A stretch of DNA of 64,000 bases. It comes from Candidatus Lustribacter sp. (GTDB lineage: Bacteria; Vulcanimicrobiota; Vulcanimicrobiia; Vulcanimicrobiales; Vulcanimicrobiaceae). Positions 31,452 to 53,915 of the stretch are shown in pieces. The number at the start of each line of letters is the position of its first letter. The stretch's first letter is position 1. Location: NCBI GenBank assembly GCA_965277805.1, contig OZ255842.1:640001-704000 (forward strand), read 5' to 3'. A program made the translations under genes and the position numbers. Below the pieces are notes generated by a model. The model was given only the letters and a program-made list of their open reading frames with translations. It did not search any database and had not been told where the DNA came from.

Positions 31452-31486
31452 CGTTGTCGAAAACAACTAACATGGGTGTCGAGGGT

Positions 31487-34767: not shown

Positions 34768-35094
34768 CTACACGCTAACGTAGATCATCCCGTCTTCGAT
34801 CATCACCGGAAACGTGACGGCCGCCAGGTCGGGGTTGGTGACGCTCTTGCCGGTGGCGAGGTCGAAGCGAAAGCGGTGCCACGGGCAGATGATCTCGCGG
34901 CGACCTTCGTGCAGGCAGCCCTCGTCGAGCGGCGCGCCTTTGTGCGGGCACGCATTGGAGAACGCATACACGTCGTCGTCGACGCGCATCAGCGCGATCT
35001 TGCGCCGGCGTACGGTTTCCAAACGCAGGGCGCCTTTCGGCAATTCGTCCAGCCGGCAAACGGCTTCGCGGGTGGTGTCGGTCGTGCTCATCAT
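34768..35094 (-). CDS. Rieske [2Fe-2S] ferredoxin
   Basis: NACPHKGAPL and ICPWHRFRFDLATG; 108 aa. Confidence 0.92.
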   Translation of the reverse strand: MMSTTDTTREAVCRLDELPKGALRLETVRRRKIALMRVDDDVYAFSNACPHKGAPLDEGCLHEGRREIICPWHRFRFDLATGKSVTNPDLAAVTFPVMIEDGMIYVSV

Positions 35095-35114: not shown

Positions 35115-36115
35115 CTACGTTTTGAGTAGTGCCTCAGCATTGCTATGGAAGACTGCGCGTAGCTGGTTTTCGGTGAAGCCGCTCGAGCTTAACCCCGCGA
35201 CGTCCCTGGCCGCGACGCTGTACGGGAAGTCGGTACCGAACAGGATGTGCGAGGCGGGCACCAGCTTGGAGAGGGCGGTCATGGCCTCGATGTTCGCCGA
35301 TTGGGCGGTGTCGTAATAATACCGCGCGACGGTGTCCGCGACCGTGCCGGGCAGCATGGCAGCCCACTCGGGTGAACTCGCCTTGCGTAAAAAGCGGCCG
35401 ATCAGATACGGCATGCTGCCGCCGGCGTGCGACCAGATGATGCGTACGTTCGGAAAGCGCTTAGCGGCACCGTTGAAGAGATAATTGGCGATGGCGCGGG
35501 TCGTATCGGTCTGATATTCGATCATCGAGTCTTCGATCGAAGCGCCGAGGAGATTCGTGCAGCACGCGTTTGACGTCGGTGAACGAACACGAGCGCGCGG
35601 CGCCGATCGAGTTCGGCGAAGAGCGGGTCTAGCCGCGCGTCGCCGAGCCAGAGGCGGCCGCCATAGCTCGAGAACAGGCCAACACCGTCAGCCTTTAGCG
35701 TGTCGAGGGCGTACGCAACCTCATCGAGACTCGCCTTAACATCGGGAAGCGGCAATGCCGCGAACATGCCGTACCGTGCGGGATAGCGCCGTACGACATC
35801 GGCGGCGTAGGTATTGCATTCGCGCGCCAGACGCTTCGTGCTATCCGGGAAGCCGAAATCGAGCCCGGGGGTCGTTATCGAGAGGTAGGCGCGCCGTACG
35901 CCGGCGCGATCCATATCGTCCATCGACTTCTCGAGGGTCCACCCGAGGATCGGCGGAGCCAACTCGGCGCTCCCGACCTCGCGCACGTAGGCCGGCGGGA
36001 CGTAATGATGATGAACGTCGATTTTATCGGCGGTTTGTGCCTTGGCCAAAGCGGGGATTCCGGCCGCTAGGGCGGCCGTCGCGGCGATGAAGTTCGTTCG
36101 CGTGAACTGCGGCAC
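35115..36115 (-). pseudogene. Amidohydrolase-2 family protein (6-methylsalicylate decarboxylase-like) interrupted by a 1-nt deletion; pseudogene or sequencing error
   Basis: IDVHHH, WSHAGG and FGTDFP motifs. Adding one base at 35578-35579 joins the two ORFs into [26 protein letters not shown]. Confidence 0.8.
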
Positions 36116-36246: not shown

Positions 36247-37448
36247 GTGGAGCTCGACGAACGACCCGACACCAGCGACACCATTGCGACCGGCACTCAC
36301 TTTTACGATAAGTTGGTCCGGGAACGCCGGCCGGGGAGTACCTGCGCCGGTTCTGGATGCCGGTGGCGCTGCTCGATGACGTGAAAGCCGGTCGCGCCAA
36401 GACGATCAAAATTCTGAGCGAACTCTTCACCTACTATCGCGGTGAGAGCGGCGCCCCCCACTTAGTCGCGAACGAATGCGCGCATCGGCACACGCGGCTG
36501 GCGCCGCACGGTCGGGTTGAGGAAGACTGCATCCGCTGTTTCTATCACGGCTGGATGTACGACGCGACTGGTCAGTGCCTCGAGCAACCGGCCGAGGGGC
36601 GCGAGAGCTTCGCCCACAAAGTCCAGATCAAGGCTTATCCGGTCCGCGAATACCACGGAATCGTGTTTGCGTACTTCGGCGCCGGCGAGCCGCCCGAATT
36701 CCAGCATCTCGATCTGTTCGACGGTCCCGGCGTTCGTGAAGTTGGATCGTACGTCCGCCAGACGAACTTCTTCAACTCGCTCGACAACCAGGCCGACTGG
36801 GTGCACGCGAACTTCGTGCACTACCGCTCGGAGTTCACCAAGATCGGCATTAACCGCGCGATTCCGGTGGTCAGCGCCGAGGAAACCGAGTACGGTCTCA
36901 AGGGCTACCTCACGTACGACGACGGCGTCGTTGGGGTGAATTTCGTGCTAATGCCGATCGGCATGTACATCATCGGGTCTGGCTCGCGCATCAACGACGT
37001 GGATGGCCTGGTGTACATTCACCAGATGGCCTGGCGGACGCCGATCGACGACCACAGCCACCGCTCGTTTAACATTTACTACGCCGACGTCACCGGTGAG
37101 GCGGCCGAGCGGTTCTCCGCGGCGCGGGCTCACGCGCGTCAAGCCTCGACCGACATGCCCGGTCGCGCCGAGATCATGAACAAGATCTACAGCGGCGAGC
37201 TGCACGTCGACGAGGTTGACGAGTCGCGCCCCGACATCGTCGGCATCCAGGACACGGTCACGATGGAGATGCAACGGCCGATCAGCGAACGCGAACCCGA
37301 TCGGCTGGGCCGTTCCGATGCGGCCGTGATCGTGCTGCGCAAGATGTACATGCGTGAAATTCGCAAGATGCTCAACGGCGAGCCGATCAAGCCGTGGAAG
37401 TGGCCGCGCGAGCTGAAGGCCGAGCCGCAGTTTGTCGAGGTTCCATGA
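36247..37448 (+). pseudogene. Rieske oxygenase alpha subunit with a 1-nt deletion near the 5' end; otherwise intact (main ORF 36357..37448)
   Basis: GGGGAG RBS then GTG 36247 reads VELDE...FYDK; one added base at about 36311 continues VGPGTPAGEYLRRFW. CAHR..CFYHGW, DNQADWVHANFVH and QD motifs present. Confidence 0.75.
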
Positions 37449-38527
37449 CGCGGCTTTCACGCGGCCAGGTGCTGAGCGGGCTCGCCGCCGTCGCCGCCGT
37501 CGCGGCGACCCCGCGTCCGGCGCGAGCGGCCGCGCTGAACGATCTCGTTGCGGCTGCCAAGAGCGAAAAGGAACTCAGCTTCATCGCCGGCAGCGACACG
37601 TTTGGTGGCGCACCGGGCATGAGTGCGCTCAACGATGCCTTCAACCGCAAATTCGGGCTCAACGCGACGCTCACGCTAACGCCGGGGCCGGCGATGACCG
37701 TGATGGGCTCGCGTCTGTTGACCGAGTATCAGGGTAATCACACCGCCTCAACTGCGGCCTATATCGGGCCCTTCTCGCAGTTCGTTGCGCTCAGTCGCGC
37801 AGGCGCATTACAAAAGGTCGATTGGGTCGGAACCTTTCCTTGGGTCACCCGCGCGATGGTCGTCGACCCCGACAGCGTCGGGATCCTGATGCGTACGGGT
37901 CCCAACGGCATGCTCTACAATCCGAACGTGCTGCCGCCGAATCAGGCGCCGAAGAGTTACGAGGATCTCGTAAACCCCAAAGTCAACGGGCCGTGGAATA
38001 AGAAGCTCGCGCTGGCGCCGTATCCGGACTGGCTTGCGATGCTCTCGATCAGCTGGGGCCCCGAGCGCGCGAAGGCGCTCGCCACTAAAGTCGCCGCCGT
38101 GGCGGGCGGGGCGCTCCGGTACGGTGACGCGCAGCCGCTGATCGACGGGCAATTCGCGCTCATGGCAAACGAGGGTTCGTGCCTCGAGCTCAAGTGGGCG
38201 TGGGAGTCGAAAAACGTTCCTTTCAACGTCGTCTTCGGATCGAACCCGGTGGTGTGCGATTACTTCCAAATGGGCGTGCCGAAGAACTCGCCGGCGCCGC
38301 ACTTGGCGCAGTTGTTCGTCGGGTTCGGGACGACGCCCGAGGCCCAGGCGATCACCGATAAGTTCGGCGGCCAGGGTTCGCATCTCGTGCCCGGCACGCG
38401 CATCTACGCATTCATTCGCTCGCAGCGAATTACGTTGCAGGATCCGCGGCGCGTCTACGCTTTCTTTTCCGATCCGTCGACATCGGCGCTCTACGACGAG
38501 CTTGGCAAAATCATCCGGCTCTCATAG
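37445..38527 (+). CDS. ABC solute-binding protein (AfuA/Fe3+-like family)
   Basis: Signal peptide; AAAKSEKEL, PKSYEDL, PKNSPAPHLAQLF...PEAQ. Confidence 0.82.
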   Translation: MTRLSRGQVLSGLAAVAAVAATPRPARAAALNDLVAAAKSEKELSFIAGSDTFGGAPGMSALNDAFNRKFGLNATLTLTPGPAMTVMGSRLLTEYQGNHTASTAAYIGPFSQFVALSRAGALQKVDWVGTFPWVTRAMVVDPDSVGILMRTGPNGMLYNPNVLPPNQAPKSYEDLVNPKVNGPWNKKLALAPYPDWLAMLSISWGPERAKALATKVAAVAGGALRYGDAQPLIDGQFALMANEGSCLELKWAWESKNVPFNVVFGSNPVVCDYFQMGVPKNSPAPHLAQLFVGFGTTPEAQAITDKFGGQGSHLVPGTRIYAFIRSQRITLQDPRRVYAFFSDPSTSALYDELGKIIRLS

Positions 38528-38531
38528 CCGG

Positions 38532-40232
38532 ATGACGTTTGGAGAGGCTTTGCGCGGCCGCGGCACCATCATCGCGATCGCGGTAGTCGGCGTTGCTGCG
38601 ACCGCGCTCGCGCTCTTGATGACGATCCGCCTAGCCTTTCAGGGCGCTACCCCGGATTCGTTCACGTTGGCCAACCTCGGAACGGTGTTTGCGGATCCGT
38701 TCGTGGCGCATGCGTTGCTCAACACGCTCGGATTCGCAACGGTCACGGGTCTGACGGCGTTCGCGTTTGGCGTGCCGATCGCGTGGCTCGCCGAACGCAC
38801 CGATCTTCCCGGGCGCGCCATCGTCATGCCGCTAATGACGATCGGACTGCTCGTGCCGGGTTTTTTCAATGCGATTGGCTGGCTCTTGCTCTTGCACCCC
38901 CGGATGGGCATGATCAACGTTTGGCTGATGCAAGGCTTACATCTCGCGAGCGCACCGCTCAGCGTGGTGTCGGTTGCGGGGATGGGCGTCGTCCAGGGCC
39001 TCGGTCTGGCCGCGCTAATGTTCGTGATGTGTGCGGCGGCGTTTCGCGCCCAAGACGCCACCCTCGAGGAAAGCGCGCAAGTGCACGGCTTGCGTTTCTT
39101 CGACCGGCTCGTTCGCATCACGCTACCGTTGATGTGGCCGAGCCTGCTCGCGGCCGGGATCTACGTGTTCATGGTGGGGCTTGCGGTCTTCGACGTGCCG
39201 GCCGTCATCGGGCTCAGCAACCGCATCTACACGTACAGCACGTTCGTATACGACCTTACCAACCCGAGCGCCGGCGGCCGCCCGAATTACGGCGTTGCGG
39301 GGGCATCGAGCCTCATCGTCATCTTGCTGGCCGGACTGCTCGGAACGTGGTATTTCCGCGTCGTGCGCCGTTCGCGCCGTTACGCCGTGGTGACCGGCAA
39401 AGGCTATCGGCCCGCGCCGTTCAGGCTCGGGCGCCGCGCCGTCGCGGCGTGGGCGTTCATCGCCGCATACCTTACGCTGAGCCTCGGGTTGCCGGGCTGC
39501 GTCCTGCTGTGGGCCTCGTTCTTGCCCTACTTCGCGCCGTTCTCGGCTGATGCGCTGGCGCGCGTCTCGCTTGCGAATTACGCGACGATTCCCTGGGCTG
39601 CGTTCTGGCACGCCGCGCTCAATAGCGCGATCGTCATGATTAGCGTTCCAACGATCACTATAGCGCTCTCGCTGGCGATATCGTGGGTCGTCGTGCGCTC
39701 GGGACTGCGTGTGGCGCGCGTCTTCGACGTCCTGGCGTTTCTGCCGCTCGCGATCCCGAGCGTCGTGTTCGCGGTCGGCGCCGCGGCCATCGCAATTTTT
39801 TGGCTGCCCCCGTGGATCCCGTTCTACGGCACTGTCGGTATTCTCATCGCGGTGCAGGTGATCGTCCAGTTGAGCTTCGGCACGCGGGTGCTCAACAACG
39901 CCCTCTTGCAAATTCATCGCGACCTCGACGACGCCGGTGCCACGTTCGGTCTGCGCGCGGTGGACGTGATCTGGCACGTGCTGCGGCCGCTGGTCGGCCC
40001 GGCGCTGCTGTCCGCGTGGCTTTGGATGGGTCTGCTCGCCTATCGCGAGCTGACCGTCGCGATGATGCTCGTGACCGATAAGAACATCACGCTTCCGGTC
40101 TTCATCTGGGGCGTCTACAGCGAAGGTCAGATCGGGCAGGCTGCGGCGCTGACGATTTTGCTTGGATGCGCGATCGTGCCGCTGATCGTGGCGTATTTCG
40201 CGGTCGCGCGGCGTGGCACGGCACCGGCATGA
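38532..40232 (+). CDS. ABC transporter permease, fused two-domain FbpB type
   Basis: AWLAERTDLPGR, LEESAQVHG, YAVVTGKG, LDDAGATFG. Confidence 0.9.
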   Translation: MTFGEALRGRGTIIAIAVVGVAATALALLMTIRLAFQGATPDSFTLANLGTVFADPFVAHALLNTLGFATVTGLTAFAFGVPIAWLAERTDLPGRAIVMPLMTIGLLVPGFFNAIGWLLLLHPRMGMINVWLMQGLHLASAPLSVVSVAGMGVVQGLGLAALMFVMCAAAFRAQDATLEESAQVHGLRFFDRLVRITLPLMWPSLLAAGIYVFMVGLAVFDVPAVIGLSNRIYTYSTFVYDLTNPSAGGRPNYGVAGASSLIVILLAGLLGTWYFRVVRRSRRYAVVTGKGYRPAPFRLGRRAVAAWAFIAAYLTLSLGLPGCVLLWASFLPYFAPFSADALARVSLANYATIPWAAFWHAALNSAIVMISVPTITIALSLAISWVVVRSGLRVARVFDVLAFLPLAIPSVVFAVGAAAIAIFWLPPWIPFYGTVGILIAVQVIVQLSFGTRVLNNALLQIHRDLDDAGATFGLRAVDVIWHVLRPLVGPALLSAWLWMGLLAYRELTVAMMLVTDKNITLPVFIWGVYSEGQIGQAAALTILLGCAIVPLIVAYFAVARRGTAPA

Positions 40233-41293
40233 TCGCGGCGCGTGGCATCGTCCGCGATTTTCGCACCGGCGACCGCGCCGCGGCAGCGCTGGGCGGCGTT
40301 GATTTGACGATCGCAACCGGCGAATTCCTCGTTCTGCTCGGCCCGAGCGGCTCGGGGAAAACGACGCTCTTGCGCTGTGTGGCCGGACTGGAACGTCCGG
40401 ATGCGGGCGAGATCGAGCTCGCCGGCGTGCCGGTGTTCTCGGCGGCGCGCAAGATCGACGTGCGCCCCGAGGATCGCCGGCTCGGCATGGTGTTCCAATC
40501 CTATGCCGTCTGGCCGCACCTAACGGTGGCGCAAAACGTCGCGCTGCCGCTGACGCGCGGCGTGAACCGGATCGCGCGCGCCGACATGATGGCGCGGGTC
40601 GCGCGCGCGCTCGCTGCCGTGCAACTCGCGGCGCTCGGCGATCGGCCGGCCACGCTGCTCAGCGGCGGTCAGCAGCAGCGCGTAGCGCTCGCGATCGAGC
40701 CGCGTGCGCTGCTGATGGACGAGCCCTTAAGCAATCTCGATGCGCGGCTGCGCGGGGAGATCCGCAGCGAAATCAAAGCGACGGTCGCGCAGATCGGGAT
40801 CACGGTGTTGTACGTCACCCACGATCAGGACGAGGCGATGGCGCTCGCCGATCGCATCGCCGTCATGGACGGCGGACGCATCGTGCAGAGCGGTACGGCC
40901 GAGGATCTCTATCGCCGCCCGCTGACGCCGCGCATCGCCGAGTTCTTCGGGTCGATCAACTGGATCGCGGGCACCGTGCGCGCTCGGGGCATGGTCGAGA
41001 CGGCACTCGGTGCGCTGGCGGTGCGGAGCGACGCCCCGAGCGGGGCCGTGATGGTGGGAATTCGACCCGAGGATGTCCAGATCGCTAAGGTTCGAAATGG
41101 AACGGTCAACATGTTCGAAGCCCAGGTCGTCGACGATCGTTATGTTGGCGACCACCGGATTTGCCGCATTCGCGCGGCCGATTCTGTAATCACTGCAAAG
41201 CTCTCGCCCGATCGCGAGTATTGCGCCGGAAGTTCGGTCTGGGTTGGGCTACCCGCGGACCGGCTCCACGCATTTCCCTCGCAAACCGATTAG
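40229..41293 (+). CDS. ABC transporter ATP-binding protein (PotA/FbpC type) with a 4-aa deletion after the signature motif
   Basis: GPSGSGKT, LSGGQQQRVALAIEP (RALA missing), LMDEP, YVTHDQ. Confidence 0.9.
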   Translation: MIAARGIVRDFRTGDRAAAALGGVDLTIATGEFLVLLGPSGSGKTTLLRCVAGLERPDAGEIELAGVPVFSAARKIDVRPEDRRLGMVFQSYAVWPHLTVAQNVALPLTRGVNRIARADMMARVARALAAVQLAALGDRPATLLSGGQQQRVALAIEPRALLMDEPLSNLDARLRGEIRSEIKATVAQIGITVLYVTHDQDEAMALADRIAVMDGGRIVQSGTAEDLYRRPLTPRIAEFFGSINWIAGTVRARGMVETALGALAVRSDAPSGAVMVGIRPEDVQIAKVRNGTVNMFEAQVVDDRYVGDHRICRIRAADSVITAKLSPDREYCAGSSVWVGLPADRLHAFPSQTD

Positions 41294-41379: not shown

Positions 41380-42018
41380 ATGTACGCGGAACTGATGGTC
41401 GATCGCCCGGTTGCCGACTTGCTCGGCGATTGGGACATCCTGGACGATCTGGTGAGTAAGAAGTTCTCGCGGTTCAAGCGTGTCGGCGACGGCATTCTGG
41501 GCATCCGGCGGCGCATGCTCGAGGGCAATCAGGTCGTCGATCCGGTCAAGGGCGTTTTGCCGATGTCGCTCGAGCTCGGCCCCAACGGCATCCACGCCGT
41601 CGGGCACGACATCCTGACGCTGCGCATGACCACCGGCGGCACGCCGCATCGCGTGCCGCACAACTTCGGCTTCTGGCATATCAACGATATGGACGAGCTC
41701 TACCTCACGCTGCCCTCGCCGCGGCCGGGCGATCCGGCCTACATGATCGTGATCATGCAGCATCCCGAAGGTGCCGAGGGCGAGAGCTTCGCGGAGTACT
41801 GCGAGAAGTGCCTGACGCTGATGTTCGAGCGGCACTACAACACCGGCCGGCTGGGTTTCGAAGGCTTCTTCAAAGCCAACGATGAGGCGATCATCGAGTA
41901 CAATTCCGATCCGAAGTTCCGTACGTGTCCGCAGTGCGGCCATCTCAATCCGTTGGGTTACACGTGGAATCCGGGCCGCGATACGCCCGAGACGGCCGCC
42001 GCGCGCCTGCAGTGGTGA
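41380..42018 (+). CDS. Hypothetical metalloprotein with a 3-hydroxyanthranilate-dioxygenase-like C-terminal Cys4 site (family member 1)
   Basis: PHRVPHNFGFWHINDMDE; YCEKC-x38-CPQC; clear paralog of 43796..44449. Confidence 0.75.
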   Translation: MYAELMVDRPVADLLGDWDILDDLVSKKFSRFKRVGDGILGIRRRMLEGNQVVDPVKGVLPMSLELGPNGIHAVGHDILTLRMTTGGTPHRVPHNFGFWHINDMDELYLTLPSPRPGDPAYMIVIMQHPEGAEGESFAEYCEKCLTLMFERHYNTGRLGFEGFFKANDEAIIEYNSDPKFRTCPQCGHLNPLGYTWNPGRDTPETAAARLQW

Positions 42019-43208
42019 TCCGGCGGATCGCGGCATTCGCCGTCGCGGCGCTGCTGTGCGCGGTCGCTGCAGCCGGTGCCGCAACGCCGTCGTCCACGAC
42101 ACCGTTCACGATCGACGTCATCGCGTCGTCGACCGGTGCGGGTGCGTACTTCGGTCAGCAGATGGGCGACGCGGTCAAGAACTACGAACTCGCGGCCAAC
42201 GCGAGCGGCGGCATTCGCGGCGTGCCCGTGCACTTCGAGTTTCACGACGACGAATCGCAGCCCGAAATCGCCGTCCAGCTGGCTCACGAGATCCTCGCGA
42301 AGCATCCGGCGGCCTTCCTCGGCGGCAGCGTGCAAGCCACGTGCAACGCGCTCGCGGCGCTGGCGGCCGGCACCACAGTGATGTATTGCATGTCGCCGGG
42401 TCTGATTCCGGAGCCGCGCGGATACGTATTCGCATCGTCGGCTTCGCTTCAGCATCTCGTGCCGGCGCTATTTCGCTACGTGCGCACGAGCGGTCACGTG
42501 CGCGTCGGCTTGCTCGTCACGACCGACGCGACCGGCCAGCGTTCGGACAAGATGATCGACTACACGCTGCACTTGCCGGAGAACAAATCGCTGGTCGTCG
42601 CCGGCTACGAACACTTCAGCGATAGCGACATCAGCGTCGCGGCGCAGATCGCGCACATCAAAGCCAACAATCCGCAGTTCCTGTATGTGTCGGCAGCCGG
42701 CACGCCGTTTCAAACCGTGCTGCACGGTATCATGGACGGCGGGCTCGCGAACGTTCCGATCATCACCTCGGCCTCGAACATGACGGACAAGCTGCTCGCG
42801 CCGTGGGCGAAGACGCCGCCGGCGCAACTGGACTTCAACGGGACGCCGTTCTGGGGCGCTACCGATCCCGACCGCCGGTTGAAGGCCGCGATCGCGGAAT
42901 ATCATGCCGCCTACGCGCGCGCGGGAACCGCACCGACGCCCAACGACGACTACGGCTGGGATCCGGCGAAGATCACCGTCGCCGCCTTTCGCGCGCTCGG
43001 CACCGGCGCGACCGCCGCGCAGATTCACGACTACATCGAAAACTTGCACGACTTCCCCGGCATCGGCGGGCTGTACGATTTCCGCAGCGGGGATCAGCAC
43101 GGTCTCGGCGACGATGCCACGGTGATCTTGCAGTGGGATCCGGCGAAGATGATCTTTTATCCGGTGAGCGGCCCGGCGGGCGTCGCGAGTCCCAAGCGAG
43201 GTAACTGA
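42015..43208 (+). CDS. ABC solute-binding protein, LivJ type
   Basis: Signal peptide; NASGGIRG, DDESQPEIAVQL, YDFRSGDQHGL. Confidence 0.88.
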   Translation: MIRRIAAFAVAALLCAVAAAGAATPSSTTPFTIDVIASSTGAGAYFGQQMGDAVKNYELAANASGGIRGVPVHFEFHDDESQPEIAVQLAHEILAKHPAAFLGGSVQATCNALAALAAGTTVMYCMSPGLIPEPRGYVFASSASLQHLVPALFRYVRTSGHVRVGLLVTTDATGQRSDKMIDYTLHLPENKSLVVAGYEHFSDSDISVAAQIAHIKANNPQFLYVSAAGTPFQTVLHGIMDGGLANVPIITSASNMTDKLLAPWAKTPPAQLDFNGTPFWGATDPDRRLKAAIAEYHAAYARAGTAPTPNDDYGWDPAKITVAAFRALGTGATAAQIHDYIENLHDFPGIGGLYDFRSGDQHGLGDDATVILQWDPAKMIFYPVSGPAGVASPKRGN

Positions 43209-43209
43209 G

Positions 43210-43794
43210 ATGACCACGAAATCGGAACCGGTCACGAACCACCGGATTCCCCTCGTCGGACCGGAAGCGCCGGACCGCGCATGGCAAGAAGCCAGCCGCA
43301 ACTATATCTGGTCGGCGCGGCATCCACGCGGCGCGTCGCGCTACGGCATCGTCGAGCTGTTGCCAGAAGGCGTCGTGCGTTTGCCCGATCGCGGACGGAT
43401 GTTCCACGTCATCCCGGCCGGTCGCGCGTTTCGCATCGAACACGGCTTCGGCTTCTGGCGCACGTGCGGCGCGGACGCGCTCTACATCGCGAGCGACTAC
43501 GACGAGGGTGTCGCGTACATGATGGTGATCAGCACCGCGCCCGAGTCGTATTCGACCGACACGCTGCACTGGACGTGCCCCGGCTGTGGCGCCGCGCTGC
43601 ATTCGGTCGACGTCCCGACCCGGCGCATTCACCTGACCGGCTTGAACGAACGCGCGCTCGCCGCGGTACGCGCCTTCAACGCCGATACTGCGTTGCGTAC
43701 GTGCGCGAAGTGCGCCGCGGTGCACCCGCCTGCCTACGGCTTCGAACCCGGCGACGACAATGATGAGGAGCGCAGTGCCCGTGCAGGCTGGTAA
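43210..43794 (+). CDS. Hypothetical Cys4 protein, diverged family member 2 (putative catalytic His/acid residues absent)
   Basis: FRIEHGFGFWRTCGADALY; WTCPGC-x38-CAKC; ends RAGW like its paralogs. Confidence 0.72.
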   Translation: MTTKSEPVTNHRIPLVGPEAPDRAWQEASRNYIWSARHPRGASRYGIVELLPEGVVRLPDRGRMFHVIPAGRAFRIEHGFGFWRTCGADALYIASDYDEGVAYMMVISTAPESYSTDTLHWTCPGCGAALHSVDVPTRRIHLTGLNERALAAVRAFNADTALRTCAKCAAVHPPAYGFEPGDDNDEERSARAGW

Positions 43795-43795
43795 C

Positions 43796-44449
43796 ATGTA
43801 CTACGCTGAGATCACCGTCCCCGAGCGCATCGACGCGCTGCTCGACGATTGGGATTTGCTCGACGATCGCGTGATCAAGAAGTTCACCACGTTCAAGGAT
43901 GTCGGCGAGAACGTCGTCGGCGTGCGGCGGCGGATGGTGACGAAAGATCCCGTCACGGTCCTCGATCCGGCCAAGGGGCTGTTGCCGGAATCGGTCGAGA
44001 TCGGACCCTCCGGCCTGATCACGCAGACGCACGAGATCCTCTCGCTGCGCATCACGGTCGGCGGCGCGCCGCATCGCGTACCGCACAGCATGGGCTTCTG
44101 GCACATCAACGACGTCGACGAACTCTATCTGACGTTGCCGCCGCCCGCGCCCGGCGAACCGGCGTATTTTCTCGTCATCATGGGCAACCCCATGCCGTCT
44201 AGCAACGAAGGCGAAAGCTGGGCGCAATACTGCCAAGAATGCCTGACGATGCTGCACGAGCACTACTACAAGACCGCGCAGTTGGGAATGGACGGCCATT
44301 GGCGCGCCAACCTCGCCGCGATTCGCGAATACAACAGCGATGTGAAGTTCCGCACGTGTCCCGAGTGCGGTCACGTGAACCCTCTGGCATACGTGTGGAA
44401 CACCACCAAGGATACGCCGGAAGAACGGTTGGCGCGCGAGCAGTGGTGA
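43796..44449 (+). CDS. Hypothetical Cys4 metalloprotein, family member 3
   Basis: PHRVPHSMGFWHINDVDE; YCQEC...RTCPECGHVNP; starts 1 nt after the upstream stop. Confidence 0.75.
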   Translation: MYYAEITVPERIDALLDDWDLLDDRVIKKFTTFKDVGENVVGVRRRMVTKDPVTVLDPAKGLLPESVEIGPSGLITQTHEILSLRITVGGAPHRVPHSMGFWHINDVDELYLTLPPPAPGEPAYFLVIMGNPMPSSNEGESWAQYCQECLTMLHEHYYKTAQLGMDGHWRANLAAIREYNSDVKFRTCPECGHVNPLAYVWNTTKDTPEERLAREQW

Positions 44450-44542: not shown

Positions 44543-45448
44543 ATGACGCACGCGCAGCAGAAAAATGACAGCCCGGCGGATTGGACCACGGCCATCGAGG
44601 AGCGCCGTGCGATTGCGCCTACGGCGGCCTTGCAAGGCGCGAATTTACGCGGCTTCGAGATCGAGTGGCTGCTGTTGCGGCCCTGCGTCTTCCCGGCCTC
44701 GATCGTGCGGGATCTGTCGGTCATCGCGACGCTCGGTTCGGGATTCGTCATCGAGACCGAAGCCGGCCGGCGCATCACCACCGAACACGGCGAGATCTAC
44801 TTGCTCTCGCCGTCGCTGCGCCGTCGCGCGTCGTTTCGCCAACGCGGCGAAGTCTTGCGCATCACGTACGGAAACGCGCTCGTGGGCCAAATCGCCGCGG
44901 AGATCGGCATGACCGGCGTGCTCGACGCGCTGACGTATCAGCGGCTCACCGATCCCGCGGTCTACGAGATCGTGCACATGCTGGCCGAGGAAGCGCGGCC
45001 GGGCGGTGCGCGCGCGCCGATCTATAGCGCCTCGCTCGGACTCGCCTTGCTCGGACACGTGCTGCGTGGCTGTCCGCCGGCGCAACAGCGCAATGCGGTC
45101 GTCGATGCCGGGCTCTCGCCGCAGCGTCTCGCGCGCAGCCGGCAGTATATCGAAAACCGGCTCGGCGGCGATCTGACCGTCGCCGAGATTGCCGGCGCGG
45201 TCGATATGAGCGTGTTTCACTTCGCGCGCGCGTTCAAACAGTCAACCGGGAAGACACCGCACGCCTACGTGCTCGAGCGGCGCATCGCCGCAGCCCAGAG
45301 CCTCGTGCTCAACACCACCCGCCCGCTCAACGAAATTTCGTCCGAGCTCGGCTTCAGCAATCCCAGTCACTTCAGCGCGGTCTTCGGACGCCTCACGGGC
45401 ACGTCGCCGTCGGCTTATCGTTCACACAAAGATGTAAGGAGCACATGA
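44543..45448 (+). CDS. AraC family transcriptional regulator
   Basis: C-terminal LTVAEIAGAVDMSVFHFARAFKQSTG and LGFSNPSHFSAVFGRLTGTSPSAYR. Confidence 0.92.
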   Translation: MTHAQQKNDSPADWTTAIEERRAIAPTAALQGANLRGFEIEWLLLRPCVFPASIVRDLSVIATLGSGFVIETEAGRRITTEHGEIYLLSPSLRRRASFRQRGEVLRITYGNALVGQIAAEIGMTGVLDALTYQRLTDPAVYEIVHMLAEEARPGGARAPIYSASLGLALLGHVLRGCPPAQQRNAVVDAGLSPQRLARSRQYIENRLGGDLTVAEIAGAVDMSVFHFARAFKQSTGKTPHAYVLERRIAAAQSLVLNTTRPLNEISSELGFSNPSHFSAVFGRLTGTSPSAYRSHKDVRST

Positions 45449-46695
45449 CCGCATCATCTCAAGATCTTCAGGGCTCGCCGGACGAGAAGTGGGACCCCGC
45501 GTGGAGCAACGCGGTATTCTCGCTAGCCGAGCGCGACCGCCGCTGGGCGAAGGTACGGGCGCTGATGAAGCGCGACGGCATCGATTTGCTCGTGTGCATG
45601 CCGTGCACGAATTCGCACGACCGCGGCGCCGCCGACGCGCGCTACCTCACGCAACTTGGAGAGAACAGCGACGAACAATCGGTCGCGTTCCCGATCGAAG
45701 GCGACGTGCGGGCCTGGCACAGCCGGCCCGGCGTGTGGCCGTCCTCGAACTGGTTCTCGGATATCCGTTCGGCCGGCCGCGGCACGGGCGGTGCGACGAT
45801 TAGCAGCTACATCAACGAATTTCCGCAGTACAAGAAGGCGCGCATCGCGATCGCCGGGCTCACCTCCACGCCGATGACGCACTGCCGCGCGGCCGAGGGC
45901 GAGATCAATTGGCAGTCGGTGGAGATCCTCAAGAGCAATTTCCCGCAAGCCGAGTTCGTGAGCGCGTCGACCGTGCTCGGCGAAGCGCGCTGGGTCAAGA
46001 GCGATGAAGAGATCGAATTCCTGCGCAAAGGCGTCGAGATCGCCGAGCTGACGCTCGATGCGATCCGCGAAACCGCGCGCGAGGGCGTTCCGGAACGCGA
46101 TGTGTTCGCCGAGATGATGAAGGTCAATGCGAAGGCCGGCGGCAGCTTCACACCGATGTTCGGCTGGATCACGGGACCGCAGGGCCGGCCATACCACCGC
46201 CTCGAGCAGCCGTCGTTCCGCAAATTTCAGGACAAAGATATGCTCAGCGTGGAGATCGAGGGCCGGTGGGGCGGTTACATCGCGCAGATCGATCAGTCGG
46301 CAGTGATCAACGCGCCGATCGACGGCCTCGACGATGCGATGAAGCTGGCGTATGAAGCCTACGACCGCACGTTGGAATTACTCAAACCGGGCGTGACGAT
46401 GGGCGAACTGGCCGACACCGCGGTGATGACGGCGCTCGGCGGCCGGCTGCGTGCGGGTCTCGGCTTCCACGGCCGCGGCACCGGGGATGACGGTCCGCTC
46501 TTGATCGCAGGCGTGCCGCTGAAGCCGGAGATTCGCGATCTGGCGCTCGTTGAGAACTGCTGCTTTGCCGTGAAGCCGAGCGTGCATTTCGACGGCGTTG
46601 CCGAGTATTGCCGTTGGGGTGATTCGGCGGTCGTGGGCAAGAACGGCGGCGTGCGCCTCGGCACGCGCCCGCAAGAACTGATCGTCCTGAAGTGA
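45445..46695 (+). CDS. M24-fold protein with non-canonical metal ligands
   Basis: FSLAERDRRW, RWVKSDEE, EIEGRWGGYIAQ, HGRGTGDDGP, VKP, WGD; AAGGAG RBS. Confidence 0.85.
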   Translation: MTASSQDLQGSPDEKWDPAWSNAVFSLAERDRRWAKVRALMKRDGIDLLVCMPCTNSHDRGAADARYLTQLGENSDEQSVAFPIEGDVRAWHSRPGVWPSSNWFSDIRSAGRGTGGATISSYINEFPQYKKARIAIAGLTSTPMTHCRAAEGEINWQSVEILKSNFPQAEFVSASTVLGEARWVKSDEEIEFLRKGVEIAELTLDAIRETAREGVPERDVFAEMMKVNAKAGGSFTPMFGWITGPQGRPYHRLEQPSFRKFQDKDMLSVEIEGRWGGYIAQIDQSAVINAPIDGLDDAMKLAYEAYDRTLELLKPGVTMGELADTAVMTALGGRLRAGLGFHGRGTGDDGPLLIAGVPLKPEIRDLALVENCCFAVKPSVHFDGVAEYCRWGDSAVVGKNGGVRLGTRPQELIVLK

Positions 46696-46703
46696 GGCAT
46701 ACG

Positions 46704-47891
46704 ATGAGCCGTGCATTCAAGTTTGCGTGCGCGACGCTGGTGGCCGCGCTCATCGGCGGCGCGACGCTGCCGGCGAGCGCGCAACCGGCGCCCTACACGT
46801 TCGAAGTCATTCTCCCGATGACCGGGCAGGCGGCGTTTTCGGGCCAAGCCGAAAGCCAGACGCTCTCTGCGTTCGAGAAGTACGTCAACGCCAACGGCGG
46901 CGTGCGCGGCGGCCCGATCCATTTCGACATCAAAGACGATCAGACGAGCCCCCAAGTCGCGCTGCAACTGACCAACGCGCTGGTCGCGCAGCGCGTGCCG
47001 GTGATCTTCGGCTCGGCCGTGGTGGCGACGTGCGCCTCGATCGGCGCCGCGGTGTCGGCAACGGGTCCGGTGCAGTTCTGCTTTTCGCCCGGCTATTCTC
47101 CGCCGAAGGATTCCTATTCGTTTGCAACCGGCGCAACGATCCTGGCGCTGACGAAGACGATTCTGACGTACGCGAAGCTGCGCGGCTTTCACCGTATCGC
47201 GTTCCTCGGCTCGACCGACGCGACCGGTATCGCATCGGCTGCGGTCAACGCCGAACTGTTCGCATCACCCGATCTGCGTGGCATCCAGCTGGTCGCCGAC
47301 GAGCGCGTCAGCACGGGTGACGTCTCCGCTGCCGCGCAGATGGCGAAAATCAAGGCCGCGAAGCCGGACGCCCTGTGGACATCGACCAGCGGCACCGTGT
47401 TCGGCACCGTGATCCACGCGATGTCCGACGTCGGGCTCGACGTGCCGGTGCTCACGACCACCGCCAATGCCAGCGCCGCGCAGCTCAAACCGATGGCCGC
47501 GCTACTGCCGCACGAACTCTACTTCAACGGCGTGCCCTTCCAGCTCGGCGATTTGCTCAAGGATGCCGACGTTCGCAAACAAGGCCGGACGTTCGCCGAC
47601 GCTTTCAAGCTGATCGGCGTCGAGCCGACGCCGCTGCACACGCTCTCGTGGGATTCGCTGCTGATCACGGTCGCGGCGCTGCGTCAATTCGGCCCGTCGA
47701 TGACCGCCGACCAGCTGAAAACCTACACGCTGGGGCTACGCCACTTCCCGGCACTGAACGGCAACTACAATTTCTCATCCGGCGATCAGCACGGCCTCGA
47801 TTCCAACGCGGTCGTCATCGTCGGGTGGGACCGTGACAAACAAGACTTCTTCCCCGCCAGCCAACTCGGAGGCATCCCGATCAAACGATAA
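46704..47891 (+). CDS. ABC solute-binding protein, LivJ type
   Basis: ILPMTG, VNANGGVRG, DDQTSPQVA, YNFSSGDQHGL. Confidence 0.88.
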   Translation: MSRAFKFACATLVAALIGGATLPASAQPAPYTFEVILPMTGQAAFSGQAESQTLSAFEKYVNANGGVRGGPIHFDIKDDQTSPQVALQLTNALVAQRVPVIFGSAVVATCASIGAAVSATGPVQFCFSPGYSPPKDSYSFATGATILALTKTILTYAKLRGFHRIAFLGSTDATGIASAAVNAELFASPDLRGIQLVADERVSTGDVSAAAQMAKIKAAKPDALWTSTSGTVFGTVIHAMSDVGLDVPVLTTTANASAAQLKPMAALLPHELYFNGVPFQLGDLLKDADVRKQGRTFADAFKLIGVEPTPLHTLSWDSLLITVAALRQFGPSMTADQLKTYTLGLRHFPALNGNYNFSSGDQHGLDSNAVVIVGWDRDKQDFFPASQLGGIPIKR

Positions 47892-48074: not shown

Positions 48075-49058
48075 CTACTGGGATGCTTTCCAGCGGCTCG
48101 AGCGCAACTCGGCCTCGGCTGCGCGGAGCGGGTCGAAGTCGTAAATCGCGCCGGCCGGCGGCACCGCGTCACGCGGCATCGACATGATGACCGCGCGCAC
48201 GTCGAGATCGCCCCGGATATCATCGTTCGATACCATCAAGTCGGGACTCAGCCCGGCAATGAACGCATCGTAGTCGGCTGACTCGATCGCGGCATTCGAT
48301 GAAGGCAGCAGCTTCAACATCATCGCGATCGTCTGCTGTTTGTAGGCCCGCACGTAGGCCATGCCCTTGAGAATTGCGCGCAGCATCTTGTGCAGCAGCT
48401 CGGGACGATCGGTGACCGTCTTTTCCGAAACGGCGAGGCCGTCGATCGGAAGGTGGATGTTCTTGTAGTCCATCACGAGATGGGCTTTGCTCAGTTCGCC
48501 CGTGATGCGCAGCTGCGTCACGTCGGTCGAGGCGAGGACGAAGGCCGGCGTGAGGCCCGACATCGCGCTCGCGCCGTTCGCGGTGCCGAGCGGCGTGTAG
48601 CCGACGGAGTCGGGAGGAATGCCCGCGTGCTGCAGCGCGATGCGCGTCGCCACCTCGCCGGCGTCACCGCGCGTTTCGATACCGATCTGTTTGCCTTTCA
48701 CGTCGGCGAGCGTGCGGATTTCGGGGCGCGTCGACCAGAGCGAGTAGAGCCCGCGGTTCTGCAGCACGAGGACGATGCGCATCGCGCCGCCGCGCATGAT
48801 CGCGGCCAGGGCGCTGGCGCTCGAGGCACTTGCATCGATGCTGCCCGAAAGCAAGGCCGGCGTCGCAACGCCGCCGTTCGCGAGCGTGTACTTGAAATCG
48901 AGGCCTTCCTCGGCGAAGTAGCCTTTCTGCCACGCGACGAGATACGGCGACTCGAACATCTGGATCGAGGGCATCGTGAACGTCAGCGTTTGCCCGGCGG
49001 CGGCCGGCGACGCGCAAGCAATCCACACCGCCGCGAGTGCGAGCGCGATGCGCCGCAA
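48075..49058 (-). CDS. ABC solute-binding protein, NMT1/SsuA type (paralog of 25703..26710)
   Basis: QKGYFAEEGLD, ATPALLSG, ETRGD, VGYTPLG, IYDF. Confidence 0.88.
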   Translation of the reverse strand: MRRIALALAAVWIACASPAAAGQTLTFTMPSIQMFESPYLVAWQKGYFAEEGLDFKYTLANGGVATPALLSGSIDASASSASALAAIMRGGAMRIVLVLQNRGLYSLWSTRPEIRTLADVKGKQIGIETRGDAGEVATRIALQHAGIPPDSVGYTPLGTANGASAMSGLTPAFVLASTDVTQLRITGELSKAHLVMDYKNIHLPIDGLAVSEKTVTDRPELLHKMLRAILKGMAYVRAYKQQTIAMMLKLLPSSNAAIESADYDAFIAGLSPDLMVSNDDIRGDLDVRAVIMSMPRDAVPPAGAIYDFDPLRAAEAELRSSRWKASQ

Positions 49059-49061
49059 GAG

Positions 49062-50021
49062 TTAGATTTTCACCGGCGTGAAGCGGGTGGTATAGAGCGT
49101 TTTCGGATCGGGCACGCTATCCATGATGCCGAGCTCCTTGAGCGACGATGCGACCGCCGCGACGGACTGGGTGTCGAAGGCGCCGTTGTTCGAGAGCCCG
49201 GGCAGTTCCTCATCATAGAGCCGCGCGGCGACGGCGGGCGATTGGTGCAGCGCAGCGACGGCGCTCGCGACCGTTTCGGGCTTGTGCGACCTCGCGTAGG
49301 CCACCGTCATGAACCAGCCGCGCAGAAAACGCTGGACGATGTCGGGGTGGTTGGCGATCATGCTGTCGCTCGCGAAAACGGCGTGCGTGATGAAGTGCTT
49401 GATCAATCCGAACGACATCAGCACGTGGCCTTCGTGCGTTTCTTCCACGCGATAGCCGACGCTCAGGTCGGCGACGGCGCCGGCCGTTTGGCCCGCGTTC
49501 ATCGCGATGATGCGCGGTTCGATCGCGCCCATCTCGAGCGAATTGATGCCGTCATTGCCCCAGCCTTGCTCGCGCGAGGTCTCGTGCACGAGCCAATCCG
49601 TCAGCGAGCCGGCCGAGGAGACGGTGATCGTCTTGCCCTTGAGATCGCGCGGCGTCTTGATCGTGCTGTTTTGCGCGACGATCACGCACATGTTCGACGG
49701 CGATCCGTACATCTCGGCCACGGCCATCGCCGGAATGCCTTTGGAGCGATAGCCCATCGCGGGGCCCGATCCCAGGGCGAAGTCGAGTTCGCCGGCCACG
49801 AACGCCTGTTGCTGCTGCGCGTCGGACTTGAACGCCGACATCACCGGGTTCAGGTTGACGCGGTCCCAAATGTGCGCGCTCGAGCCGAGATCGAGCAGCG
49901 CGAACAGGAACGAATCCGGGCTCGCGCGTCCGACGCGGATCGTGTCGGGCGCGGCGGCACGGGCCGGAATCGCCGAGACGAGAACGAGCAACGCGCTCAG
50001 AACTGCCGCGACGAGCCGCAT
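49062..50021 (-). CDS. ABC solute-binding protein, NMT1/SsuA type
   Basis: Signal peptide; LGSGP, DLKGKTITVSSAGSLTDWL. Confidence 0.88.
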   Translation of the reverse strand: MRLVAAVLSALLVLVSAIPARAAAPDTIRVGRASPDSFLFALLDLGSSAHIWDRVNLNPVMSAFKSDAQQQQAFVAGELDFALGSGPAMGYRSKGIPAMAVAEMYGSPSNMCVIVAQNSTIKTPRDLKGKTITVSSAGSLTDWLVHETSREQGWGNDGINSLEMGAIEPRIIAMNAGQTAGAVADLSVGYRVEETHEGHVLMSFGLIKHFITHAVFASDSMIANHPDIVQRFLRGWFMTVAYARSHKPETVASAVAALHQSPAVAARLYDEELPGLSNNGAFDTQSVAAVASSLKELGIMDSVPDPKTLYTTRFTPVKI

Positions 50022-51769
50022 TAGGGTTGACGCCGTTGCGCGCGCAACGCCGCGGTGGCCGCGTCGTCGACCGTTTTGTCGGCCTTGAAGACCACGCCAT
50101 AGTCGTCACGCGCAGCGTCGACGGTGATGAGCTCGTCGAGTACGTCGCTGCGCACGCTGGCCGGATCGCGGTCGAGCGGGTTGCCCCAGCCGCCGCCGCC
50201 GGCCGTTTCGACGACGACCGATGCGCCGGCGGGGAAGTTCGTGCGGTACGGGTCTTCGTTTGCGAACGGCTCGTCTTTGGTGCGCCGTGCGCGGTTGAGC
50301 GACGCCTCGCCGCTGCCGCCCCCGAAGACGCCCCACGGCGGCAGCTTGCGGCGGCCGTTGTTGCTGAGGCTCCAGCTGCCTTCGAGCAAATTGGTGAACT
50401 GTGTCGCCATGCCGAGGCCGCCGCGGAACTTGCCCGCGCCGCCCGAGCCTTCGCGCAGCGAACGCCGGTCGACGCGCACGGGCGACTTCAGCTCGATCGT
50501 TTCGATCGGCGTGTTGCGCACGTCGCCTTGGCAGACCGACACCGACGCCGATGGGCCGTCGGCATTGGGACGCGCACCCCAGCCGCCGCCCTCGATCGTT
50601 TGCAGCACGAAGGCGTTGCCGGTTTTCGGATCGCGGCCGAAAAACGCGACGCCGCCGCCGAGCGTGCCCAAATGCGCGGCGGGCGTGCGTTCGGGCATCG
50701 CGGGCGCAAGCGCTTTGACGATCGTGTCGACCATCGTCGGCAGCGCGCGGCTCCAGCCGGCCATCGGCGCGGGGAAGCGCGCCATCAGCATGTTGCCTTC
50801 TTGAATCTCGACTTTGAGCGCGCGGAACGAGCCTTCGTTGACCGGCTCGAGCGGCCCGGTGATGCCCTTGTAGGCGATGTACGGGGCCGCCAGCGTGCGC
50901 GCATTCATCCCGCCCTTGCGTTCGAGCGAGGACTTCGTGAGATCGATCGTCATGTCGGTGCCGCTCACCGTAACGATGACGCGTAAGGGAACGGTCGAGG
51001 TGCGATCGAAGCCGTCGTTGTCCATGTAGGACTCGGCTTCGTAGACGCCATCGGGGATCTCGCCGACGACGAGCCGGCACTTACGCTCGGTCTCATCGAA
51101 GATCGTCTCGATCGAACGCGAGATCGTGTCGCGCCCGTAGCGCGTGTAGAGCTCCTCGAGCCGGCGCTCGGCCAGCTTGCACGCGGCGATCTGCGAGCGC
51201 ATGTCGCCCATCGCGGCATCCGGATAGCGGATGTTGTCGCGGATGATCGCGAGCACTTTTTCGTCGGGCACGCCGCGCTCGTAGATCTTGATCTGATTGA
51301 ACTGCAGGCCTTCCATCCACGGGTCGGCGACGTTCTGCGCGCCGAAGCCCGTGCTCATGCCGCCGACGTCGCCCCAGTGCGCGCGCACGATCGCAAACGC
51401 GGTCAGGACGCCGTCGACGAAGAAGGGCGTATAGATGCAGACGTTGTTGAGGTGCTGACCCGAGACGCGCTGATGGTTCATCAAGAGCACGTCGCCCGGC
51501 GCGAAGCCGTCGCGCCCGTAGTGCTCGATGCCGTCTTTGATCACGACGCCGAGATCGGCTACGAAGTGCGACACGCCGCCGATGTTCTGCGAGATCAAAC
51601 GCCCGTCGGTGTCGAGCAGCGCGCAGCAGTAATCGCGGATCTCGTAGATCATCATGTTGTACGAGGTGCGCTGCAGGTCGACCGACATCTCGTCGGCGAT
51701 CGCCGGAAACGCGTTGCGCAGCACCTCGAGCGTGACCGGATCGAGGCGCGCGGGTTGTTCGGCGATCAT
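50021..51769 (-). CDS. Hydantoinase B/5-oxoprolinase subunit (paralog of 18029..19771)
   Basis: DPVTLEVLRNA, LQRTSYNMMIYE, HWGDVGG, SGGAGKFRGG, TAGGGGWGNP. Confidence 0.92.
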   Translation of the reverse strand: MIAEQPARLDPVTLEVLRNAFPAIADEMSVDLQRTSYNMMIYEIRDYCCALLDTDGRLISQNIGGVSHFVADLGVVIKDGIEHYGRDGFAPGDVLLMNHQRVSGQHLNNVCIYTPFFVDGVLTAFAIVRAHWGDVGGMSTGFGAQNVADPWMEGLQFNQIKIYERGVPDEKVLAIIRDNIRYPDAAMGDMRSQIAACKLAERRLEELYTRYGRDTISRSIETIFDETERKCRLVVGEIPDGVYEAESYMDNDGFDRTSTVPLRVIVTVSGTDMTIDLTKSSLERKGGMNARTLAAPYIAYKGITGPLEPVNEGSFRALKVEIQEGNMLMARFPAPMAGWSRALPTMVDTIVKALAPAMPERTPAAHLGTLGGGVAFFGRDPKTGNAFVLQTIEGGGWGARPNADGPSASVSVCQGDVRNTPIETIELKSPVRVDRRSLREGSGGAGKFRGGLGMATQFTNLLEGSWSLSNNGRRKLPPWGVFGGGSGEASLNRARRTKDEPFANEDPYRTNFPAGASVVVETAGGGGWGNPLDRDPASVRSDVLDELITVDAARDDYGVVFKADKTVDDAATAALRAQRRQP

Positions 51770-53814: not shown

Positions 53815-53915
53815 CGACAAAGAAGTTCTCCGCACGGGCGCCAAAAAGGGAGTATCTTTCTTCTAGTGTCGCTAAAAGGAGCCTCCCGCATACCGCTCGC
53901 CCGGGGCCCGCAAAC

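Follow-up and report, generated by a model that had tools for sequence, protein, structure and literature searches.

A candidate heteromeric oxygenase family of HAO-like proteins with Cys4 sites, often encoded near small Rieske ferredoxins

In the genome of Candidatus Lustribacter sp. (phylum Vulcanimicrobiota; assembly GCA_965277805.1), a stretch of 64,000 nucleotides of contig OZ255842.1 (positions 640,001 to 704,000 of the forward strand; hereafter, the window) carries three genes for paralogous proteins that share four conserved cysteines (Cys4) and belong to a distinct, unnamed family related to 3-hydroxyanthranilate 3,4-dioxygenase (HAO). All three genes lie on the plus strand. Two of them, 41380..42018 (member 1; 212 amino acids, aa) and 43796..44449 (member 3; 217 aa), encode copies 1 and 2 of a protein that we call type A, and the gene between them, 43210..43794 (member 2; 194 aa), encodes a second protein, type B. 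We put at roughly even the chance that types A and B together form a heteromeric oxygenase with HAO-like folds and non-heme iron that receives its electrons from a Rieske ferredoxin; type A copy 2 would be a putative catalytic subunit and type B its degenerate partner.

How are the three proteins related to one another? An earlier note on this DNA had described them as paralogs, and every motif that it listed is present in our alignment of the three. They share the segment HNFGFW, HGFGFW or HSMGFW (members 1, 2 and 3, respectively), the strand motif AYMIVIM, AYMMVIS or AYFLVIM, and a C-terminal RLQW, RAGW or REQW. In all three, the two CxxC pairs are spaced by exactly 38 residues (CxxC-x38-CxxC; Cys141/144/183/186 in member 1, Cys123/126/165/168 in member 2 and Cys146/149/188/191 in member 3). 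The stretch PHRVPHxxGFWHINDxDE occurs in members 1 and 3, and at this place member 2 has FRIEHGFGFWRTCGADA. Type A copy 1 has the full set of His, Asn, Asp and Glu residues in addition to the Cys4 and scores 347.9 bits against the type A profile. Type A copy 2 offers His93, His103 and Glu109 as a candidate metal triad. Type B has kept its Cys4 and Asp89, and the equivalents of His103 and Glu109 are absent from it.

Identity is 59% between members 1 and 3 and 28% between member 2 and the type A members. In a profile–profile comparison with hhalign, types A and B aligned with a probability of 100% (E 3e-38) over 151 C-terminal columns, and the first 55–70 residues differed between the two profiles. 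The paralogy of the three window proteins is far above chance. The genes are also closely packed. The upstream gene for a LivJ-type binding protein, which sits between type A copy 1 and the B-A pair, has its stop at 43208, and the ATG of member 2 follows at 43210; the stop of member 2 ends at 43794, 1 nt before the ATG of member 3 at 43796, as had been pointed out. There is an alternative ATG for member 3 at 43760; we use 43796 because the homologs begin at MYYAE, which matches this start.

For member 3, word-indexed searches returned 63 relatives, and for member 2, 47; almost all are metagenomic, and all are annotated as "hypothetical" and have no Pfam domains. The type A alignment was built from 30 of the 63 relatives and the two window copies, and the type B alignment from 27 of the 47 and member 2. 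Conservation was then read from a wider set of 79 type A and 62 type B sequences taken from 65 genomic loci. His93, His103, Asn105, Asp106, Glu109 and the four cysteines are kept in every type A sequence (79/79), and His97 in 65 of them. Similarly, the four cysteines and Asp89 are kept in every type B sequence (62/62). At the position of His103, type B has Arg in 38 of the 62 sequences and His in five; the position of Glu109 is variable (Ala, Thr, Leu or Met), and at that of His93, Phe, His and Tyr occur at similar frequency. These results indicate that types A and B are separate conserved subfamilies rather than three equal paralogs, and the loss of His103 and Glu109 alongside an invariant Cys4 and Asp89 marks type B as a conserved yet degenerate partner.

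The family is rare; its carriers, bacteria of soil and peat, belong to at least six phyla. Among 1.84 billion representatives, a profile search picked out 189 proteins with E ≤ 0.001, of which 98 had E ≤ 1e-10, and the tail of the list merges into true HAOs. A search of the ESM Atlas with member 3 gave best scores of 0.88, to unnamed short clusters, and provided no lead. A search for longer homologs found no relative of 393–2000 aa, which is weak evidence against large fusions. Two type-A-like proteins of 272 and 284 aa (P0150 and P0165) carry an extra N-terminal domain of ~120 residues without a Pfam match. In the literature, we found no description of the A/B family, nor of a terminal oxygenase of the cupin type that takes its electrons from a Rieske ferredoxin.

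The relationship with HAO is clearest at the C-terminus. A Pfam scan of the three window proteins gave no family at E ≤ 1, including the 3-HAO family (PF06052) and the cupin models, and the NCBIfam HAO models (TIGR03037 and NF009763) scored only 18.4–33.6 bits, against cut-offs of 145.95 and 220, and matched only the C-termini. When the type A profile was compared with the PDB, the matches comprised 12 distinct sequences, all of them HAO, and were again limited to the C-terminus. With hhalign and an HAO alignment of eight sequences, type A matched at 99.4% and type B at 98.7% over 72–73 C-terminal columns, which correspond to the last barrel strand and the Cys4 module. Going by these alignments, the C-terminal Cys4 module of the A/B proteins is homologous to that of HAO, which agrees with the resemblance of the C-termini to the HAO Cys4 site that the earlier note had recognized.

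The predicted structures extend this relationship. The AlphaFold2 models had mean confidence scores (pLDDT) of 85.9 for type A copy 2 and 88.1 for type B, and both are beta-rich, with 11–12 strands. Aligned with VIA-align to the HAO structure 5v26_A, type A gave Z 8.6 and a root-mean-square deviation (rmsd) of 3.3 over 142 aligned residues (next unrelated row, Z 4.8), and type B gave Z 9.5 and an rmsd of 3.1 over 140 (next unrelated row, Z 4.1); cupins other than HAO reached only Z 3.0–3.7. Foldseek, a check proposed in the earlier note, returned only HAO at E ≤ 0.001 (14 of 14 matches for type A and 13 of 13 for type B, with E down to 4e-5 but TM-scores of only 0.33–0.50). HAO is thus the only clear structural match for both predicted folds, and the earlier suggestion of a distinct HAO-related family is borne out by the absent Pfam match, the NCBIfam scores below cut-off, the C-terminal hhalign match and this structural result. 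The N-terminal ~90 residues, which had been judged unrelated to HAO, indeed have no HAO counterpart in sequence, though the predicted folds align to HAO over 140–142 residues.

The putative catalytic site of type A departs from the HAO plan. The VPH-like stretch (93–97) precedes the HINDxDE stretch (103–109) with a gap of five residues, which is the reverse of the HAO motif order; the VPH[SN] of type A resembles the VPHS of HAO motif 2, and WHINDVDE resembles the cupin motif 1, FHINPADE, of an HAO-like gene in the same genome. The HAO motif that the earlier note had missed in its usual place before VPH is therefore not lost; the order does differ, as the note had said, and both motifs are present, swapped. 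Glu109 of type A lies only 13 residues ahead of the last barrel strand. Type A does not show the HAO triad (His-Glu, then His) in its canonical order and spacing, and the profiles do not align this region to HAO. In the type A model, His93 and His103 lie on neighboring strands (92–94 and 102–105). From the motifs and the model, we infer a rewired barrel in which His93, His103 and Glu109 form the iron triad; the changed strand order would explain the low scores to other cupins. In the HAO of C. metallidurans, 3-hydroxyanthranilate is bound by Arg47, Arg99 and Glu110. The HAO-like gene mentioned above (C1:466516-467046; L021 6517-7047) is conventional, matching PF06052 (E 1.9e-21, 76.7 bits) and scoring 125.8 bits against NF009763, below the cut-off of 220; a RidA/L-PSP gene precedes it and a LivJ-type gene follows it.

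The genomic context of the two types was examined with a pattern scan of 185,579 species genomes, which yielded 65 loci in about 40 genome records; the loci include related genomes and overlapping stretches, and the counts that follow are descriptive rather than independent. The loci come from Vulcanimicrobiota, Alpha-, Beta- and Gammaproteobacteria, Chloroflexota, Binatia, Terriglobia and Paenibacillus, and contain 80 distinct type A genes. Counting as adjacent a type B gene on the same strand within 400 nt, 54 of the 80 type A genes have an adjacent B (48 in the order A-then-B and six in the order B-then-A). Among the other 26, 17 have a type B gene elsewhere in the locus. The pairing of a catalytic-type with a degenerate gene, for which the earlier note had suggested a neighborhood survey, is therefore conserved across the loci, and the degenerate paralog does co-occur with the His-rich type in other genomes.

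What else travels with the pair? When all neighboring open reading frames (ORFs) were clustered, the commonest cluster other than A and B was that of a small Rieske protein, which turned up in 45 of the 69 loci, and its CxH...CxxH ligands are kept in 48 of 49 proteins. Of the 80 type A genes, 40 have a small Rieske ferredoxin gene within 2 kb and 49 have one within 8 kb. In Methylocella, Caballeronia, Trinickia, Aurantiacibacter, Binatia, Steroidobacteraceae and a betaproteobacterium, the genes stand in the order A-B-ferredoxin. Furthermore, among ten longer representatives examined, there were two natural fusions (316 and 327 aa): in P0117, a Rieske domain is followed by type A, and in P0201, a type-B-like protein is followed by a Rieske domain. 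In Trinickia, the operon reads A, B, Rieske ferredoxin, Fer2 (a plant-type ferredoxin) and a reductase binding flavin adenine dinucleotide (FAD; Pyr_redox_2 plus Reductase_C domains), and it adjoins genes of a lower meta-pathway, namely those for acetaldehyde dehydrogenase and 4-hydroxy-2-oxovalerate aldolase.

The remaining neighbors are more varied. Within 8 kb of the 80 type A genes, an M24-fold protein is encoded near 48, a luciferase-like monooxygenase near 40, a LivJ-type protein near 18 and a LigXa-like Rieske oxygenase, of the same cluster as 36357..37448 in the window, near 17. The binding proteins near A/B vary by lineage (LivJ-type, NMT1/SsuA-like or TAXI-TRAP), and so do the regulators (AraC, MarR, IclR, TetR and LysR-MarR). 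The luciferase-like monooxygenases matched generic subfamilies below cut-off, with no SsuD match. Sulfonate desulfonation, which the SsuA-like proteins, the luciferase-like monooxygenases and an FMN reductase in Aurantiacibacter had suggested, was dropped for want of specific matches, and naming a substrate from the neighbors was rejected in view of the generic monooxygenases and the lineage-variable binding proteins and regulators. In Methylocella sp. CPCC 101449 (L072 7141-10568), the block of regulator, A, B, ferredoxin and TAXI has a GC content at third codon positions (GC3) of 0.62–0.69, and its flanks are mostly at 0.73–0.89, with some as low as 0.68–0.69, which hints at a recent horizontal acquisition of the block.

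A home-made, GC3-based gene caller, which misses overlapping or lower-GC genes, served only to choose ORFs for Pfam scans. In the window itself, Pfam scans agree with the flanking genes that the earlier note had named, namely two LivJ-type proteins, an AraC regulator and an M24-fold protein, and all of these lie on the plus strand. The first LivJ-type periplasmic binding protein (41925..43208; Peripla_BP_6, E 4.5e-33) probably starts further downstream because its listed GTG overlaps type A copy 1 by 94 nt. The B-A pair is followed by the AraC-family regulator (44543..45448; HTH_18, E 2.9e-23), the creatinase/prolidase-like M24-fold protein (45445..46695; Peptidase_M24, E 1.3e-17) and the second LivJ-type protein (46692..47891; Peripla_BP_6, E 1.3e-35). 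When the M24-fold protein was aligned to the P. furiosus prolidase 1pv9, Glu, Gln, Thr, Lys and Gly stood at the positions of the five metal ligands of the prolidase (Asp209, Asp220, His284, Glu313 and Glu327). With these substitutions, the protein probably binds no metal and is creatinase-like rather than a metallopeptidase.

Upstream of type A copy 1, and directly adjoining it, is an ABC importer (37445..41293, plus strand; a binding protein, a double permease and an ATPase, with SBP_bac_6/1, BPD_transp_1 and ABC_tran plus TOBE_2 matches). Before it lies the alpha subunit of a LigXa-like Rieske oxygenase (36357..37448, plus strand; Rieske E 5.6e-16, LigXa_C E 5e-4), which we treat as genomic context. 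A small Rieske [2Fe-2S] ferredoxin of 108 aa is encoded on the minus strand at 34768..35094 (Rieske E 8.2e-19, HcaC/NirD-type) and shares a sequence cluster with the ferredoxins that follow A-B in other phyla. We regard it as a candidate electron donor for A/B; the Rieske oxygenase next to it could just as well be its partner. Among the window genes scanned between 28.3 and 56.3 kb, there was no ferredoxin-reductase-type domain. The self-contained catabolic module that the earlier note had envisaged does not hold up, with the likely ferredoxin 6.3 kb upstream and no reductase-type gene among the scanned genes.

Other genes of the window deserve mention. An Amidohydro_2 gene of the ACMSD superfamily (35115-36115, minus strand), which directly adjoins the gene for the small Rieske ferredoxin, is broken into two ORFs that match profile positions 1–157 and 152–288; it is a pseudogene with a frameshift, or else the assembly is in error here. 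The window holds two further M24-fold genes (in the region 31454-34032, and at 28306-29532), one of which overlaps the end of a Rieske oxygenase gene by 4 nt (31454-32758 and 32755-34032); in this genome, M24-fold proteins seem to accompany oxygenase cassettes regularly. Downstream of the A/B genes, a hydantoinase/oxoprolinase pair (A, 51766-53844, and B, 50021-51769, minus strand) is followed by two NMT1/SsuA-like binding proteins (region 48075-53844).

The genome, a single contig of 5.53 Mb, encodes type A five times and type B four times, and B adjoins A in all four cases. The four loci differ in gene order: A1-LivJ-B-A2-AraC-M24-LivJ in the window, LivJ-M24-LivJ-A-B in the second locus, M24-A-B-LivJ in the third and LivJ-B-Rieske ferredoxin-A in the fourth, with MarR and M24 genes nearby. 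An M24 gene is thus found near all four loci. Since there are only 19 M24 matches genome-wide, as against 115 LivJ-type (Peripla_BP_6) matches, the M24 link is specific and the proximity of LivJ-type genes unspecific. Many of the LivJ-type genes of this genome sit singly beside enzymes, without adjacent permease genes. There is also a second, different pair of HAO-like Cys4 proteins, encoded end to end (C1:2159965-2161238; L019 7966-9236) beside M24, Rieske ferredoxin and LivJ genes; one of the two proteins has a canonical-looking HxxHE and the other does not. A fused two-domain version of this second pair (418 aa; C1:4787998-4789254; L020) adjoins another LivJ gene.

A quick maximum-likelihood tree of type A was used to trace the origin of the arrangement in the window. 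Copy 1 (a "solo" A) and copy 2 (B-then-A) fall into sister groups within one Vulcanimicrobiota clade (support 99), and both have orthologs at the same positions in four related genomes. Full-length type A was found in five of the eight genomes of the genus, this one included; the 33 genomes examined from other genera within the class had none. The deep type A clades of other phyla are A-then-B. Consequently, the three-gene arrangement is best explained as a lineage-specific duplication of the catalytic subunit. The "solo" A clades arose several times, with the starred branches of the tree requiring at least five changes.

Could these proteins form an oxygenase that draws its electrons from the small Rieske ferredoxin? 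Type A would be the catalytic subunit, on an HAO-like cupin fold, with a mononuclear iron held by His93, His103 and Glu109 and with Asn105, Asp106 and Asp108 nearby. Type B, the degenerate paralog, has lost this site and retained the Cys4 metal site; iron may be present in both kinds of site of the heteromer. Electrons would pass from NAD(P)H to a reductase, then to the small Rieske ferredoxin, then to the Fe(Cys)4 site of A, of B or of both, and finally to the catalytic iron. There, O2 would be activated and a small organic substrate hydroxylated, demethylated or otherwise oxygenated; the substrate is probably an acid supplied by the neighboring binding proteins. In the window, the second catalytic isoform (copy 1) would share the single B. 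The adjacency of Rieske ferredoxins, the fusions and the reductase in Trinickia favor an electron-dependent oxygenase over a simple dioxygenase. We take the Rieske ferredoxin link, which the earlier note had not picked up, as the best clue to function. The proposal of a candidate new dioxygenase in the earlier note thus stands as regards the HAO-related family, and as regards the chemistry, the ferredoxin link argues for dependence on electrons instead.

A more specific form of this reading, which we put forward tentatively and hold to be short of an even chance, is a new class of multicomponent oxygenase: a heterodimer of rewired HAO-like cupins in which the His of motif 2 comes just before the His and Glu of motif 1, and in which a built-in, rubredoxin-type Fe(Cys)4 site, kept even in the catalytically dead subunit, would take the role of the Rieske cluster in Rieske oxygenases, passing electrons from the ferredoxin one at a time over the subunit interface to the mononuclear iron. 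A parallel is provided by the three-component Rieske oxygenases, such as carbazole 1,9a-dioxygenase (CarAa/CarAc/CarAd) and biphenyl dioxygenase. Many of the A/B loci likewise include a small HcaC/AndAb-type Rieske ferredoxin; Trinickia likewise encodes a Pyr_redox_2 plus Reductase_C reductase next to a two-subunit terminal component; and the proposed A/B logic, like theirs, is an iron-sulfur or iron-thiolate relay that would feed a mononuclear iron bound by two His and a carboxylate. On the other hand, A and B are without a Rieske, Ring_hydroxyl_A or LigXa_C domain in Pfam and consist instead of an HAO-like cupin pair with Cys4, and the smaller subunit is paralogous to the larger rather than being an NTF2-like beta subunit.

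Precedents for the two unusual elements of the proposal come from other enzymes. In AmnAB, the 2-aminophenol 1,6-dioxygenase, one subunit has the metal ligands and its paralog is without them, which is the same pairing of a catalytic protein with a degenerate paralog as in A/B, on a different fold (LigB). In AlkB-AlkG, a Cys4 iron center, rubredoxin, directly feeds electrons to a non-heme iron oxygenase and so offers a precedent for the proposed Cys4 relay; the differences are that AlkB is a di-iron enzyme of the membrane and that its rubredoxin forms a separate or fused domain instead of belonging to a cupin.

Several observations weigh against an electron-fed heteromer. No Rieske ferredoxin is encoded within 8 kb of 31 of the 80 type A genes, and only four of the 69 loci, Trinickia included, contain the reductase cluster. 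In the window, the ferredoxin gene is at a distance from the A/B genes and adjoins a conventional Rieske oxygenase. Type A may also act alone, given the 26 genes without an adjacent B, and the loci, coming from related genomes, do not count as independent. The Cys4 could be a structural zinc site, and the rubredoxin iron of HAO is discussed, reportedly by Liu et al. 2015, as an iron reservoir and not as an electron relay. Finally, the clustering of His93, His103 and Glu109 is deduced from the sequence and from the strand list of the model.

The main rival, which we consider unlikely yet deserving of serious attention, is that A/B, like HAO, is a dioxygenase that cleaves a ring in the extradiol manner, with a ring of the aminophenol or hydroxy-acid type as substrate and with no need for outside electrons in each turnover, and that the ferredoxin only re-reduces oxidized iron. 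There is a model for such a role in XylT, a plant-type ferredoxin that re-reduces the catalytic iron of catechol 2,3-dioxygenase after accidental oxidation. HAO (PDB 1yfu, 5v26 and 1zvf) is the sole relative of A/B in structure and sequence, with a resemblance of the predicted folds over the whole length, a homologous last barrel strand and a homologous C-terminal CxxC...RTCxxCG module. PMC4019311 lists HAO among the cupin facial-triad ring-cleaving enzymes, and PMC10143591 treats the HAO mechanism. The meta-cleavage lower-pathway genes beside the Trinickia operon, the Amidohydro_2 (ACMSD superfamily) gene near the window ferredoxin and another in the Binatia locus, and the type A genes that lack a nearby ferredoxin would all suit ring cleavage.

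However, the sequence resemblance to HAO stops short of the substrate-binding region: the HAO model cut-offs were missed, and A/B has no sequence match to HAO outside the last 72 columns and thus none to its substrate-binding region. No ring-fission pathway genes are conserved downstream of the pair across the loci. The ferredoxin is Rieske-type and not XylT-like. HAO itself is a homodimer that needs no electron donor; unlike it, A/B consists of two subfamilies, one of them degenerate, encoded side by side, and is linked, and sometimes fused, to a Rieske ferredoxin. The Rieske domain fused to A or to B in two proteins and the dedicated reductase that accompanies the ferredoxin in Trinickia argue, though not decisively, against a ring-cleaving enzyme.

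We regard as improbable that A/B is a cupin that does not use O2 (a hydrolase, lyase, decarboxylase or isomerase), with the Cys4 as structural zinc ribbons and the ferredoxins belonging to co-located Rieske oxygenases. Cupins are known to catalyze many non-redox reactions, the weak Pfam matches of the C-termini are to zinc-ribbon models, Rieske oxygenase alpha subunits are encoded within 8 kb of 17 of the 80 type A genes, and the genome is crowded with Rieske oxygenase cassettes. Against this, the Rieske domain fusions involve both A and B, the order A-B-ferredoxin occurs in Methylocella, Caballeronia and Binatia without a Rieske oxygenase within 8 kb, and an invariant His/His/Glu set is typical of iron-dependent oxygen chemistry. 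We think it quite improbable that type A is a homo-oligomer, in the way that HAO is a homodimer, and type B an accessory iron donor or chaperone, substrate-binding protein or regulator, as the "solo" A genes, their repeated origin on the tree and the discussion of the HAO Cys4 site as an iron reservoir might suggest. Conservation of B matches that of A, the two genes nearly always share their orientation at a distance below 100 nt (1 nt in the window), and B is still encoded in the locus of 17 of the 26 "solo" A genes.

Since culturable hosts carry the family (Trinickia, Caballeronia, Methylocella, Paenibacillus and Aurantiacibacter), these readings can be tested directly. Even if A/B proves to be a plain ring-cleaving dioxygenase, it would still be an unannotated family whose members are currently called "hypothetical". 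If, on the other hand, the electron-fed heteromer that we favor is correct, an HAO-like cupin pair with Cys4 relay sites would be a new architecture for a terminal oxygenase, next to the Rieske oxygenases and the soluble di-iron monooxygenases, which are the types known to receive electrons from Rieske ferredoxins. The rubredoxin-like site of bacterial HAO, long a puzzle, would then gain a relative with an obligatory redox role.

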